Below, one piece after another: positions 17,729 to 61,816 of a DNA stretch of 64,000 bases. Source of the DNA: an uncultured Actinomycetota bacterium (GTDB lineage Bacteria; Actinomycetota; Actinomycetes; JAFAQI01). The DNA lies in the NCBI GenBank assembly GCA_963770565.1, contig CAVYQE010000011.1, forward strand, positions 288,001-352,000, given 5' to 3'. Numbering within the stretch: position 1 is the stretch's first letter; every line of letters starts with the position of its first letter. The notes beneath the pieces are model-generated. The model had not been told where the DNA came from. It worked only from the letters and a program-made list of their open reading frames with translations, and did not search any database. Position numbers and translations under genes: made by a program.

Positions 17729-18564
17729 CTGAGGCCGATGAGACGCGATCGCTTGCAGCGCGGGCGGCCGCCGAGCTTGCACTCGTACGTGTGGTTCATC
17801 ACTATGGGGGGCGCCCCGAGTTCGTCCTTCTTGGCGGGCTCGTTCCGGCGTTGCTCTGTGCCGGATCGCCACGACGCCATGCAGGCACGAACGACGTAGA
17901 TGTGCAGGTCAATCTTGAGATCGCCGGCGGCGCAGTTCATGCCGCACGTCTCGAACAAGCCTTGCGCAATGCCGAATTCGAGCCCGACTCCGACAGGACA
18001 TGGCGGTGGACGTTCGATCCGACGAAGGACGTGCGCGCCACGGTGAAGTTCGAGTTGCTCGCTGATCTTGAGACCGCGGCCGCTGGGTCAGTGATCAACT
18101 TCGCCGGGTGCGACTCCTTGGGAGCGGCCAACCTCCGAGGGACCGGCTACGCCACCCGCGATGTTCAAGTGCATCGAATCTCAGCCAATGACCACGGCAC
18201 CTTTCGACAAGTCGAGATCAACGTCGCGGGACTAGCTGGATTCCTTCTCGCGAAGACGGCTGCCGCTCATGGACGGCGCAAACCGAAGGATTGGTACGAC
18301 ATCGCCTTCGTGCTGCTTAACAACGACCACGGTGAGGCGCCTGCCGTTGCCGAACGAGTCCTCGAAGTGTTTGGGCCGCCGGCACCCGACCTACGTACTC
18401 AACTCGTGGACCTCAAAGCCAACTTCGAGACGCCTGACACCCAGGGCACGTCCGCGTACGTAGAGCAGATCACTCTCGACCATCCCGATGAGAATCCCTC
18501 CACGGCAGCTGCCGATGCGCAGCTTGCCGTCAGTGCCTTCGTCGGCATCTTGCTCGGGACGTAA
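17725..18564 (+). CDS. AbiEii-like nucleotidyltransferase (putative toxin)
   Basis: Pol-beta NTase motif VLLGGL...HAGTNDVDV and C-terminal K...R..KDWYDI. Confidence 0.75.
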   Translation: MTEADETRSLAARAAAELALVRVVHHYGGRPEFVLLGGLVPALLCAGSPRRHAGTNDVDVQVNLEIAGGAVHAARLEQALRNAEFEPDSDRTWRWTFDPTKDVRATVKFELLADLETAAAGSVINFAGCDSLGAANLRGTGYATRDVQVHRISANDHGTFRQVEINVAGLAGFLLAKTAAAHGRRKPKDWYDIAFVLLNNDHGEAPAVAERVLEVFGPPAPDLRTQLVDLKANFETPDTQGTSAYVEQITLDHPDENPSTAAADAQLAVSAFVGILLGT

Positions 18565-37616: not shown

Positions 37617-37706
37617 TAGCCCCACCGATGGGCCATGCGTGTGGCTATAGCCCCACCGATGGGCCATGCGTGTGGCTATAGCCCCACCGATGGGCCATGC
37701 GTGTGG
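37617..37706. repeat. Family A: 3 tandem 31-bp units
   Basis: TAGCCCCACCGATGGGCCATGCGTGTGGCTA at 37617, 37648 and 37679 (last copy truncated). Confidence 0.92.
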
Positions 37707-40903: not shown

Positions 40904-42253
40904 GTGCCCGTGACTTTCGGCGAGGTCGATCCGCTGGCGCGGGTCGAGAAGGTGCTCGAGGAGCGGTTCCCGACCCGGATGGTTCCGGACCTCGACCGGA
41001 TCGTCGACCTGCTTCGCCTGCTCGGCGACCCTCAGCTCAGCTATCCGTCGATCCACATCACCGGCACCAACGGCAAGACCTCGACCGCGCGGATGATCGA
41101 CGCCCTGCTGCGCGAGCTCGGCCTCCGGACCGGCCGCTACACCTCGCCGCACCTCGAGAGCGTGACCGAGCGGATCTGTGTCGACGGCGAACCGCTGTCC
41201 GACGAACGCTTCGCCGAGGAGTACGACGAGGTCGCGCCGTTCGCTGAGATCGTCGATGGCCGCCACCCCGACCGGGTCACCTTCTTCGAGCTCCTGACCG
41301 CGATGGGGTTCGCCGCCTTCGCCGATGCCCCGGTCGATGCCGCTGTGGTCGAGGTCGGGCTGGGCGGACGCTGGGACGCGACCAACGTCGTGAATGCCCC
41401 GGTGGCGGTCGTCCTGCCGATCAGCCTCGACCACGTGGGGATCCTCGGCCCGACGATCGAAGCCATCGCCATCGAGAAGGCCGGCCTCATCCACGAGGGT
41501 GCAACCGTGATCTGCGCGATCCAGCCCGAGGATGTCGTGCGGGTGCTCGTGGAGCGCGCCGCCATGGTCGGGGCGACGATCCTCGCCGAAGGGCTGACCT
41601 TCGGGGTGCGTACCCGCTCGGTGGCGGTCGGCGGTCAGCTGCTCGAGCTGCAAGGTCTCGCCGGCGTGTACCACGACATCTTCCTGCCGCTTCATGGCGC
41701 GCATCAGGCCGGCAACGCCGCCTGCGCGCTGGCGGCGGTCGAGGCGTTCCTCGGGGCAGCCGACCGGGAGCCGCTCGATGCCGACCTGGTCCGGGCCGCC
41801 TTCGCCAAGGTCAGCTCGCCCGGCCGGCTCGAGGTCCTCCGGCGCAACCCGACGGTGTTGATCGACGGGGCACACAACCCCGCCGGAGCCGGCGCGTTGG
41901 CGGCCGCCTTGCAGGACGCGTTCACCTTCGACCAGCTGGTCGCGGTGGTGGCGATCCTCGACGACAAGGACGCAGCCGGTGTACTGGCCGAGCTCGAACC
42001 GGTCGTCACCTCGGTCGTCGCGACCACCAACTCCTCGCCCCGGGCGATGCCGGCGGCCGTGCTCGCGGAGGTGGCGCGGGACGTTTTCGGGCCCGACCGG
42101 GTCGAGGTCAGGGACCGGCTCGACGACGCGATCGACCTCGCCGTTGCGAAGGCGGAGAGCGACGCAGCGCTGGGTGGAGCCGGCGTGATCGTGACCGGGT
42201 CGATCGTGACCGTCGGCGAGGCCCGGCACCTGCTGCGGGGGCCCGGACGGTGA
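40904..42253 (+). CDS. folC: Folylpolyglutamate synthase/dihydrofolate synthase
   Basis: ITGTNGKTS, YTSPHL, EVGLGGRWDATN and DGAHNPAG; start GTG at 40904 or 40910. Confidence 0.95.
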   Translation: MPVTFGEVDPLARVEKVLEERFPTRMVPDLDRIVDLLRLLGDPQLSYPSIHITGTNGKTSTARMIDALLRELGLRTGRYTSPHLESVTERICVDGEPLSDERFAEEYDEVAPFAEIVDGRHPDRVTFFELLTAMGFAAFADAPVDAAVVEVGLGGRWDATNVVNAPVAVVLPISLDHVGILGPTIEAIAIEKAGLIHEGATVICAIQPEDVVRVLVERAAMVGATILAEGLTFGVRTRSVAVGGQLLELQGLAGVYHDIFLPLHGAHQAGNAACALAAVEAFLGAADREPLDADLVRAAFAKVSSPGRLEVLRRNPTVLIDGAHNPAGAGALAAALQDAFTFDQLVAVVAILDDKDAAGVLAELEPVVTSVVATTNSSPRAMPAAVLAEVARDVFGPDRVEVRDRLDDAIDLAVAKAESDAALGGAGVIVTGSIVTVGEARHLLRGPGR

Positions 42254-42633
42254 GCAACGGCTCGGCCGCGAACGGCTCGGGCGCACCTGGACCGAGCGGC
42301 GCGGGCGAGGCGCCGCGCGGTCTCTACGCGATCGGCTCGGCGGGGCTGGCGATCGAGGCGATCGTCCTGCTGCTCGCCGGGCCGGCGGTGCTCAGCCTCG
42401 AGCGCGGTCACGTCTCGGCGCTTCGGGTCGGCTACCTGTTTGCGCTCGCAGTCCTGCTGATCATCGCTGCGGCCCGGCTCCGCAAGCGCGGCGGGAAGGT
42501 GTTCGCGACCGCGCTGCAGGTGCTGGTCGTCGCGGGCGGGGTGGTCACCTGGCCGATGTACGTCGTGGGGCTCGCGTTTGCCGCGATCTGGATCTACTGG
42601 TTGCGGCTGTGGCCGCGCACCCGCCCGACCTGA
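42250..42633 (+). CDS. DUF4233 family membrane protein
   Basis: Small multi-TM protein overlapping the folC stop, at the usual folC-DUF4233-ndk position. Confidence 0.8.
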   Translation: MSNGSAANGSGAPGPSGAGEAPRGLYAIGSAGLAIEAIVLLLAGPAVLSLERGHVSALRVGYLFALAVLLIIAAARLRKRGGKVFATALQVLVVAGGVVTWPMYVVGLAFAAIWIYWLRLWPRTRPT

Positions 42634-42664
42634 CCGACCCGCCGGCCCCACCCGCCACATACGC

Positions 42665-42744
42665 ATGGCCCATTGGTGGCGCTATAGCCCCACCAATGGG
42701 CCATCAGTGGGGCGATAGCCCCACCAATGGGCCATCCGTGGGGC
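42665..42744. repeat. Family A 80-bp element, left flank of the nuclease gene
   Basis: 40-bp imperfect palindrome ATGGCCCATTGGTGGCGCTA|TAGCCCCACCAATGGGCCAT plus a further 31-bp-period unit. Confidence 0.92.
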
Positions 42745-42831
42745 CGTCCACATGAGCTGGAGGCAGCGCGGCCGTCCACTGCTCGTGGTCGGCTCAGCTG
42801 CGGTCAGGCGGCCGTGGCTGATTGTGGACCC

Positions 42832-43791
42832 ATGGACGCCACGCTGTTTGCGATCCTCGCCCGGCAGGACAACGTCATCACCCGTGGCCAGGCCTTACAG
42901 CTGATGTCCCTGGACACGCTCCGGCATTGCCTGCGCACTCGCTGGCAGATCATGCTTCCGGGTGTCTACCTCGCCCAGACTGGCTCGCCTTCGCGCCGCC
43001 AGCGCCTACGTGCCGCGCTTCTCTATGGCGGGCGGTCAGCGCAGTTGGCGGACGCGACCGCGCTCCGGGGATACGGCGTCCGGTACCTGCCACCGGATCC
43101 GACGGTGCGAGTCCTGTTGGCTGCCGAGACGAAGCGAGCGAATCGTGACGGAGTAGAGGTCCGACGTACCCACCGGCCACCGCGGCCACGCATCGTCGAC
43201 GGATTGCCGCACTGCCCGCCCGAGCGAGCGCTGGTCGAGTTTGCCGCGCGGATCAGCGAACGGCGCGTTGCGACCGCGGTGGTCGCAGACGCGGTGCAGC
43301 GGGGGGTCGCCCTACCTGAACGCGTTGCCCTGGAGGTGCGACACATCACCGGCCGGGGTGCCGGGCTTGCTCGGCTGACGGTGGCAGACGTCGTGGGCGG
43401 TGCAAGGTCGGCCCCGGAAGTCGACCTGGTCGCGATCTGCGCGCGGTCGACGGTCCTGCCGCCGCCGCTGCTTAACAGTCTGTTGCTCCTGCCGAACGGT
43501 CGAAAGGTCAGCCCTGACGCGCTGTGGAGGGATGCCGGACTGGTGCACGAGACGAACAGCCGCGAGCATCACGCCGGCGAGGACCTGTTCGACGACACCC
43601 AATCTCGCCACGACCTGCTGACCGAGGCGGGCCTCACCGTCCTTCACGACTCGCCGAGGCAACAGCAACGTGAACCGGAACGAATCCTCCGCCAACTCGA
43701 GTCCTGCTACCTCCGGCTGGCCGGAAGCGGCCTCCCGCCGGGCGTCGTCCTGCTGCGCGAGCATCCCGATGGCCCATACATGGGGCTATAG
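42832..43791 (+). CDS. AbiEi-like protein with C-terminal DUF559/Vsr-like nuclease domain
   Basis: ARQDNVITRGQA and PGVYL N-terminus, CPPERALVE core, then RSAPE...SPDALW...HETNSREHH...RHDLLTEAGLTVL. Confidence 0.75.
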   Translation: MDATLFAILARQDNVITRGQALQLMSLDTLRHCLRTRWQIMLPGVYLAQTGSPSRRQRLRAALLYGGRSAQLADATALRGYGVRYLPPDPTVRVLLAAETKRANRDGVEVRRTHRPPRPRIVDGLPHCPPERALVEFAARISERRVATAVVADAVQRGVALPERVALEVRHITGRGAGLARLTVADVVGGARSAPEVDLVAICARSTVLPPPLLNSLLLLPNGRKVSPDALWRDAGLVHETNSREHHAGEDLFDDTQSRHDLLTEAGLTVLHDSPRQQQREPERILRQLESCYLRLAGSGLPPGVVLLREHPDGPYMGL

Positions 43792-43848
43792 CCCCACCGA
43801 TGGGCCATGCGTGGGGCTATAGGCCCACCAATGGGCCATGCGTGGGGC
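43769..43848. repeat. Family A 80-bp element, right flank (contains the gene's TAG stop)
   Basis: 70/80 identical to 42665-42744 in direct orientation by manual alignment. Confidence 0.92.
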
Positions 43849-43863: not shown

Positions 43864-44274
43864 GTGAGCGAGCGGACCCTGGTCCTGATCAAGCCCGATG
43901 CGGTCCGCCGCGGCCTCATCGGGGAGATCGTCGGGCGCCTCGAACGCAAGGGCTTCACGATCCTGGGAATGCAGCTGCGCACGCTCGATGTCGAGATCGC
44001 GAGCCGGCATTACGCCGAGCACGACGGCAAGCCGTTCTTCGGCGAACTGGTCGAGTTCATCACCGGCGGGCCGCTGGTGGCCCTCGCGGTCGAGGGTCAC
44101 CGCGCCGTCGAGGCGGTCCGGACCCTGATGGGCGTGACCGATCCGATCGCCTCGACCCCTGGCTCGATCCGCGGCGACTTCGCCCTGGAGATCAGTCAGA
44201 ACCTCGTCCATGGCTCCGACTCACCCGAGGCGGCCGCCCGCGAGCTCGGCCTGTTCTTCCCCGATTTGGCCTGA
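43864..44274 (+). CDS. ndk: Nucleoside diphosphate kinase
   Basis: [20 protein letters not shown] and NLVHGSDS. Confidence 0.96.
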
Positions 44275-52449: not shown

Positions 52450-52528
52450 CACGCATGGCCCATGCGTGGGGCTATAGCCCCACCGATGGGCCATGCGTTG
52501 GGCGATAGCCCCACCGATGGGCCATGCG
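52450..52528. repeat. Family A solo element between the two radical-SAM-locus genes
   Basis: CACGCATGGCCCATGCGTGGGGCTATAGCCCCACCGATGGGCCATGCGTTGGGCGATAGCCCCACCGATGGGCCATGCG. Confidence 0.92.
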
Positions 52529-59880: not shown

Positions 59881-59934
59881 CACACGGATGGCCCATTGGT
59901 GGGCCTATAGCACCACCAATGGGCCATGCGTGTG
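59881..59934. repeat. Family A single palindromic copy after proB
   Basis: CACACGGATGGCCCATTGGTGGGCCTA|TAGCACCACCAATGGGCCATGCGTGTG, a 54-bp imperfect palindrome. Confidence 0.9.
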
Positions 59935-61723: not shown

Positions 61724-61816
61724 GGCTCCAAGCAATGTCACATTGCCCGCCACTTCGTGGGGGCAATGTGACTCCACCCCCGCAAAGCCCTAGGCAATGT
61801 GACATTGCTTGGGGCC
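61724..61816. repeat. 93-bp palindromic element, family D
   Basis: 24-bp IR GGCTCCAAGCAATGTCACATTGCC / GGCAATGTGACATTGCTTGGGGCC (one mismatch); core GCAATGT(C/G)AC at 61732, 61763 and 61794. Confidence 0.85.

Follow-up and report, generated by a model that had tools for sequence, protein, structure and literature searches.

A nuclease gene paired with its own palindromic repeats in an uncultured actinobacterium: a candidate non-RAYT counterpart of REPIN-RAYT systems

A gene with an AbiEi-like and a Vsr-like part in an uncultured soil actinobacterium lies between two arrays of a palindromic repeat that is dispersed over the same genome, and most homologous genes in its order are likewise bracketed by a repeat. 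Gene and repeat almost certainly form a specific, co-inherited pair in this order. We assign a probability of about one half to the reading in which the locus acts as master of a partnership between gene and repeat that resembles REPIN-RAYT and arose convergently around an unrelated, non-HUH enzyme. In our search of openly accessible papers we found no published description of an AbiEi-Vsr gene with cognate palindromes, and the data suggest a system of repeat spread that has so far not been described and whose enzyme has no relation to those known.

The locus, its repeat arrays and its protein

The window is the whole stretch of 64,000 nucleotides that was analysed; it belongs to contig C11 of the host genome (G000; actinobacterial, 4.43 Mb, 95% complete), and positions without a contig prefix refer to it. 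The gene encodes 319 amino acids and has folC (recognised by its Mur ligase domains), DUF4233 and ndk as neighbours (Table 1). Its GC3 is 0.78, compared to 0.90-0.92 across four neighbours. The stop codon forms the centre of the right palindrome, and an overlap of ORF end and repeat was also seen in 7/15 loci with ATGGSCCAT-type cores.

Table 1. Features of the locus and solo copies of its repeat in the window
Feature	Position	Strand	Remarks
Solo family A copy	37617..37703		C11:325617-325703
DUF4233 gene	42250..42633	+	host gene, left neighbour, outside the element; PF14017, E 1.6e-19
Left repeat array	42657..42744		ATGGSCCAT cores at 42665, 42696 and 42727, 31-bp period; long hairpin
TCCACA motif	42747..42752	+	follows the left repeat and precedes the start codon; candidate element of a promoter or operator
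AbiEi-fold and Vsr/EDxHD-like nuclease gene, 319 aa	42832..43791	+	stop codon in right palindrome
Predicted AbiEi fold, residues 1-190	42832..43401	+	winged-helix N-terminus and AbiEi C-terminal domain; presumed repeat-binding part
Predicted Vsr/EDxHD-type nuclease domain, residues 193-298	43408..43725	+	
Right repeat array	43761..43848		cores at 43769, 43800 and 43831; overlaps last ORF codons
ndk	43864..44274	+	host gene, right neighbour, outside the element; PF00334, E 1.9e-52
Solo family A copy	52450..52528		C11:340450-340528
Solo family A copy	59883..59932		C11:347883-347932

Two 80-bp direct repeats had been predicted around the gene, and positions 42665-42744 and 43769-43848 are indeed identical at 70/80 positions in direct orientation. 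Each had been described as a 40-bp palindrome with an extra 31-bp unit. The first 40 bp are palindromic (arms matching at 19/20 positions in the left repeat and 17/20 in the right), but the description is refined, as the whole is an array of 31-bp units: a 31-bp palindromic unit follows itself head to tail about 2.6 times in each 80-bp repeat, and a 9-bp core (ATGGSCCAT) recurs in it three times at intervals of 31 bp. Because each repeat is such an array with three palindromic cores, the pair is both direct and inverted; the inverted-repeat arms between left and right repeats span 76 nt and are 87% complementary. When folded as DNA, the hairpins had z-scores of -5.5 (left) and -4.0 (right), and 0/200 shuffles were equally stable. 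The two-core pattern was found 62 times per strand in the host genome and 0 times when read backwards, so that the pattern is not a product of chance.

Seven repeat loci gave no match near the gathering score in Rfam. A CRISPR array was rejected, as the 31-bp units abut and there are no spacers. We also considered a fixed CTAG target, since array ends often abut TAG, TGA or TAA, and found that the end consensus does not fix CTAG. A terminal GTAG (or CGTC) tag is absent from the end consensus over 84 ends.

Between the left repeat and the start codon lies a TCCACA motif, with a second, partial copy at 42775-42779. The motif occurs within 130 nt upstream in 49/72 homologous loci compared to 117/4156 host genes, typically 50-90 nt upstream of most homologues and after the upstream repeat. 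It presumably resembles the core of a DnaA box; if it is one, expression of the gene would be tied to replication.

Neither Pfam nor NCBIfam gave a match to the 319-aa protein, PF01797 included, and a PDB sequence search with the homologue alignment returned nothing significant. PADLOC AbiEi models on the other hand matched residues 4-174 (E 1.2e-9), weak Pfam matches to AbiEi_4 and DUF559 were present in 9/95 and 5/95 homologues, respectively, and the nearest atlas clusters are actinobacterial AbiEi/DUF559 proteins (0.97). In the AlphaFold model (pLDDT 94, built on 95 sequences) the AbiEi half resembles 6y8q (Z 11.7, rmsd 5.2, 181 aligned, residues 1-188) and 1zel, Rv2827c (Z 9.1, rmsd 3.8, 179 aligned). 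The nuclease half is closest to the homing endonuclease I-Bth0305I (3r3p; Z 11.7, rmsd 2.4, 96 aligned), followed by NGO0050 (3hrl, Z 11.6) and Vsr (1cw0, Z 10.4), and it also matches the RAP-containing module of FASTKD4 (9gek) at a lower Z of 7.7. The length of the protein is thereby filled by an AbiEi part (1-190) and a Vsr-like part (193-298). The predicted structure supports an AbiEi fold fused to a Vsr/EDxHD-type nuclease, and together with the PADLOC hit and the homologue Pfam matches it agrees with the AbiEi-like and DUF559 (Vsr)-like gene of the original prediction. The nuclease had been called PD-(D/E)XK-like, which has to be corrected: it falls in the histidine-using Vsr/EDxHD branch, not among canonical PD-(D/E)XK enzymes.

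Residues E196, D229, E240, N242 and H247, the putative catalytic set, are invariant in 95/95 homologues, and E196, D229 and H247 are still invariant across 109 sequences with a mean column identity of 31%. The residues to compare in I-Bth0305I are E170, D196, N208 and H213 (PMC3239194). E196, D229, N242 and H247 follow these in the same order and at nearly the same spacing; the E-D-x-H-D residues were mapped through their distances in the sequence rather than by superposing single residues. The last aspartate of EDxHD is uncertain: nothing matches it exactly, as position H+9 is Met or Thr; acids nearby are D251 (88/95) and E/D254 (91/95). With dN/dS values of 0.07-0.26 in 14/14 homologue pairs, and of 0.06-0.18 for the nuclease half in all 13 pairs that possess it, the gene family is under strong purifying selection.

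Pairing of gene and repeat within and across genomes

The palindrome had been predicted to be dispersed genome-wide, and the repeat of the ndk-site gene (family A) was found at 44 loci in the host genome by BLAST. With the core pattern we obtained 42 loci of 2-6 cores each, in which 77/82 core spacings equal 31. By the gene calls made in this analysis, 0 of these 42 loci lie wholly inside a gene, 19/42 lie between convergent and 3/42 between divergent genes (background 276 and 596 of 2325 gaps, respectively), and the array ends adjoin stop codons. One ordinary gene besides the nuclease gene is also flanked by family A.

The host genome contains six members of the nuclease family, one of them frameshifted, and each has its own repeat pair; that of the member at C11:452234 is degenerate (score 22). 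The repeats of the six members occur at about 44, 70, 28, 7, 7 and 6 BLAST loci. Families A and B have the 31-bp period in common and differ at two core positions, and their proteins are 45% identical. No Y1 transposase (PF01797) was found in this 95%-complete genome.

Further repeats and elements were noted in the course of these searches. In the window, positions 61735-61810 hold a lone array of family B, which has ATGTSACAT cores at a period of 31 bp and its gene at C1:1103707, and positions 2554-2641 hold a copy of a third hairpin family, whose gene is absent from the host genome and present as a flanked gene in the relatives G027 and G024. At C6:36566-37694 a DUF559-positive member is bracketed by a 61-bp palindrome family of about 28 loci. 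Transposase genes lie directly beside family B repeats at C11:85170-86990 and C11:864021-865514, and these repeats may be insertion hot spots. An integrase-like fragment at C1:400700-402140 lies between long inverted repeats with weak AbiEi_4 matches. Outside the window, the GC content of C1:1-410000 is 62-64%, whereas the sequence further on has 67-70%; only this part holds five abundant repeat families, of which one is CRISPR-like, and the contig may be chimeric with another organism.

Homologues were present in 37/38 genomes of the order, with 84 matches, the homologous loci being from MAGs of Mycobacteriales or Frankiaceae. For the flank test the 72 strongest loci were taken and three with short flanks left out, which gave 69 loci, three of them from the host genome. 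A repeat common to the upstream and downstream flanks was found in 66/69 (score >=33, a threshold set after the control results were seen; the 69 loci are not independent, as they include orthologues at shared sites and some MAG duplication). Among host genes used as control, 35/2186 (1.6%) had flanks that share a repeat, and four of these 35 are family members; for control genes with open gaps on both sides the count was 15/379. In trimmed windows, 62/66 cognate flank pairs pass. When flanks of different loci were paired, sharing rose with the identity of the proteins: 0/450 at 30-40% identity, 0.1% of 1143 at 40-50% and then, bin by bin up to 70-80%, 6% of 379, 19% of 119 and 64% of 39. The repeat core also tracks the protein clade in a quick IQ-TREE tree of 69 rows (3/72 rows, truncated or frameshifted, were left out), a match that is only descriptive because kin share labels.

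More distant members in five genomes were flanked in 13/16 cases, and one of these is associated with a repeat family for which the host genome has no gene; the flanked gene is in the sister genomes, G027 and G024. Phylum-wide, the family was found in 59/151 genomes. Of the best 29 loci, 8 were flanked (two marginally), compared to 0.4% of non-cognate pairs, and three single-copy homologues (L175-L177) were plainly unflanked. The counts of 59/151 and 8/29 take in three genomes that are unpublished (G038, G085 and G157), with the loci L184 and L194, both unflanked. The claim that homologues are flanked above background holds within the order (66/69 compared to 35/2186), and flanking drops to 8/29 across the phylum. 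The profile matches 18,574 clusters (50% identity) at E 0.001, and the nuclease family was found in 1/72,556 plasmid records and 0/50,697 phage records.

Repeat abundance had been expected to track the gene, and it does so loosely. For one repeat variant in 12 congeneric genomes, the numbers peak in the two that carry the gene (13 and 9), and the others have 6, 3, 1, 1 and six zeros. However, repeats of family A occur without a detected cognate gene in G028 (47), G035 (13) and G027 (9, compared to 62 matches in the host genome; contigs of G027 break at repeats), and G012 has 53 repeats without a detected cognate gene. In G027, family B is present with 35 repeats and its gene site is reduced to one core. 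The genomes in which repeats but no cognate gene were found are fragmented MAGs, 80-100% complete, and gaps at repeats together with slow decay could explain the gene-less repeats. Several carriers of genes of the family B clade have 0-3 strict family B matches.

History of the ndk site and of other sites

Empty or solo-repeat sites between DUF4233 and ndk had been predicted for relatives, and both kinds were found when 30 ndk loci were compared. G027 (ndk 97% identical) has a solo repeat there, on one contig. In G024 (ndk 84%) the gene is present, 81% identical and with matching repeats, and residues 196-294 are deleted. G009 has a distant member (E 1e-13) at this junction, on the opposite strand and in a different palindrome, and its congener G008 is empty. 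In the other 26 ndk loci, including G008, the gaps are 9-164 bp long, and several hold other palindromes by eye. A different solo palindrome was seen in the DUF4233-ndk gap of L112, L114, L116, L117, L120, L123, L125 and L128; the gap is a hot spot for several repeat families.

Similar states were found elsewhere. At C1:559195 the host genome has a solo family A repeat, where G024 has a second flanked gene of this clade. A site that we take, from its peptide, to be sucD-like has a solo family A repeat in the host genome and is filled by a gene in other genera. In total, genes of this clade occur at >=8 different sites, and at four sites both gene orientations are found.

The three cassette differences to the sister G027 that could be polarised with G024 as outgroup were all losses; two cassettes common to G027 and G024 are deleted in the host genome. 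Between the host genome and G027 (90-95% DNA identity), about 16/20 G027 repeat sites have an orthologous copy, which indicates that repeat turnover is slow, and copy numbers at these common sites differ by multiples of 31. A recent repeat gain was not caught between these two genomes; the two clear absences had no clean junctions. No target-site duplication was found at two empty sites, both of which are deletions rather than pre-insertion alleles, and comparisons of the host genome, G027 and G024 gave no clean pre-insertion allele. As the polarisable recent changes are losses, we infer gains only from the spread over sites.

Contigs from four DNA runs were searched as well. One X8 contig joins 42640 to 43769 in the solo form, with a short side of 28 letters; it is not independent evidence, as the strain is diverged and G027 may stem from it. 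No circle junction could be distinguished from other repeat copies in the four runs. Loci L094 and L097, a gene pair in two genera, are near-identical, and the ndk loci L118 and L119 (G012 and G037) are identical. These reflect either recent transfer or mis-binning, and since they may be binning artefacts they were excluded as evidence of transfer. Taken together, the comparisons point to an element at the ndk site that is mostly vertically inherited and often lost, and that has occupied many sites over longer times. For the predicted master locus, in which a helix-turn-helix and nuclease protein mobilises its cognate palindrome, the flanking, the dispersal and the solo and empty sites speak in favour, and the lack of a recent gain speaks against.

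Known systems and alternative readings

The resemblance to REPIN-RAYT systems is close in organisation. RAYTs are described as single-copy, chromosomal, associated with cognate repeats and lost through time (bioRxiv 10.1101/2021.07.10.451892), and REPtrons likewise as a single chromosomal gene flanked by cognate palindromes with dozens of dispersed extragenic copies (PMC3733652), as is the case here. Both kinds of system also occur several times per genome, each with its own repeat, are lost over time and are nearly absent from plasmids and phages; here, too, inheritance seems to be mostly vertical. In contrast to RAYTs, the enzyme is an AbiEi fold with a Vsr-like nuclease and not an HUH/Y1 (IS200-like) tyrosine transposase, PF01797 being absent from protein and genome; the GTAG/CGTC end tag is missing, and the repeat consists of 31-bp units in tandem, the number of which varies. 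The gene is not a RAYT, since it has neither an HUH/Y1 enzyme nor the GTAG tag. It also occurs at many sites across one order and has moved more than RAYTs reportedly do: the ndk-site gene keeps one site within genera but its clade occupies at least eight, whereas RAYTs are reportedly inherited vertically at a single site. The system described here is actinobacterial, and the word Actinobacteria does not occur in either source (bioRxiv 10.1101/2021.07.10.451892; PMC3733652).

In the scheme that we propose, the pseudo-palindromic cores, whose 31-bp phase places them about three helical turns from each other, would be bound by the AbiEi half, by which the protein probably also represses the promoter of its gene. 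The bound or extruded palindrome would be nicked or cut by the nuclease half, and host repair would carry copies of the repeats to further gene ends, on rare occasions together with the entire cassette; repair could also expand, invert or delete repeats. Solo repeats would form the non-autonomous population. All enzymatic steps of this scheme are inferred.

MITEs and insertion sequences have a gene between related terminal inverted repeats, plus repeat-only non-autonomous copies. The locus shares the gene between related repeats and the repeat-only copies, but the clear matches included no DDE, Y1, serine or tyrosine recombinase fold, a duplicated target was not seen at the two empty sites, and the full cassette lacks a recent multi-copy expansion. 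Its predicted nuclease fold is shared with Vsr/DUF559 and the EDxHD homing endonucleases (Z 10.4-11.7, E-D-N-H order); in common with I-Bth0305I (PMC3239194), it has an N-terminal DNA-binding module, here a presumed one, and a candidate target that is palindromic. Unlike I-Bth0305I, the gene lies outside an intron or intein, AbiEi replaces NUMOD, the last Asp has a different offset, and the gene is flanked by its candidate target rather than interrupting it.

The alternative that survives best, although we consider it unlikely, is a homing-like cassette, in which the mobile unit is the whole repeat-gene-repeat; a solo repeat would be cut and, by repair from the cassette, converted to the filled state, and solos would be both scars of a cassette that has recombined out, comparable to solo LTRs, and targets of re-entry. 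It would fit the fact that the closest nuclease fold is that of a homing endonuclease, reported to cut a pseudopalindrome (PMC3239194). The alternation of solo and filled states at ndk (solo in G027), C1:559195 and the sucD-like site, the two copies of this clade in G024, the gene in either orientation at four sites and the unrelated member with another palindrome at the DUF4233-ndk junction of G009 point in the same direction. However, there are 44 solo loci for a single gene, a genome mostly has no more than one gene for each repeat family, and plasmids and phages are almost free of the nuclease family. The differences that could be polarised are losses, and host recombination between repeats would also account for inversions and solos. 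Most steps of the REPIN-RAYT-like model recur in this reading.

Also improbable in our view is a protein that serves the host. The repeats would be bidirectional terminators, mRNA 3' hairpins or chromosome-organising sites that the protein binds or trims, as DNA or RNA, while it autoregulates through the flanking copies; the repeats would have spread otherwise, and the gene would have been moved passively by recombination between them. The excess of convergent gaps (19/42 loci, with 3 divergent) and the ends by stop codons would suit such a role, but sites behind stop codons are also those where insertions are tolerated. Strong purifying selection, the likeness of the nuclease fold to the RAP-containing FASTKD4 module (9gek, Z 7.7) and the unflanked single-copy homologues (L175-L177), which domestication would predict, are in line with it too. 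It does not account for the different repeats that bracket the individual paralogues, for the frequent loss of cassettes (3 polarised losses between two close genomes) or for the fact that no other mobiliser was found in the host genome.

An orphan antitoxin is largely refuted. AbiEi proteins are reported to bind to inverted repeats within the promoters of their own genes (PMC7319586), and the two-domain AbiEi fold of residues 1-190 resembles that of the AbiE antitoxins AbiEi and Rv2827c treated there; the upstream inverted repeats could be an operator. An AbiE type IV toxin-antitoxin pair was rejected, as the AbiEi fold is present but an operonic AbiEii is not (the neighbours are DUF4233 and ndk), and the locus differs further in its extra nuclease domain and in repeats that also lie downstream and at 40+ other loci. 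The absence of an adjacent AbiEii toxin, foreseen in the original prediction, was confirmed in that the only two AbiEii matches of the genome lie ~25 kb and ~460 kb away. A weak AbiEii match (24.7 bits) was noted in a 322-aa frame at 18136-18378 of the window, 25 kb from the nuclease locus. That an AbiEi-type antitoxin or regulator came by chance to lie between two ordinary REP copies is very improbable: the AbiEi fold and PADLOC matches would fit, as would the preference of REPs for gene ends and the ordinary genes that are sometimes flanked (one by family A), yet the cognate specificity, the flank sharing of 66/69 compared to 1.6%, the different repeats of 6/6 paralogues, the conserved nuclease domain and the missing AbiEii all oppose it; the original prediction, too, had preferred another reading.

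For many families of palindromic repeats in bacteria no mobiliser is known; at least six such families are present in the host genome, in which a Y1 transposase was not found. Mycobacterial stem-loop families were not linked to nuclease genes of this kind in the available part of the report by Cozzuto 2008 (PMC2267715), and CGTC REPs appear without a known mobiliser in that of Di Nocera 2013 (PMC3733652). The present locus contributes a genome with six pairs side by side, sites that are solo in one genome and filled in another in both directions, and a quantitative test of specificity. We lean slightly towards the broader view that actinobacterial genes labelled AbiEi antitoxin or DUF559 include a so far undescribed class of mobile or domesticated elements, in which each nuclease would recognise and cut its own palindrome and thereby generate the hairpin repeat families of its host; this would be a second, independent origin of REP replication, with hundreds of protein-target pairs. 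With a cognate nuclease for each repeat family, the question of how repeats arise in actinobacteria can be put to a direct test. A large family whose members are now annotated as antitoxin or hypothetical would also acquire a function, and many sequence-specific binders or nucleases would become available together with their natural targets, with a specificity that shifts along the protein tree.
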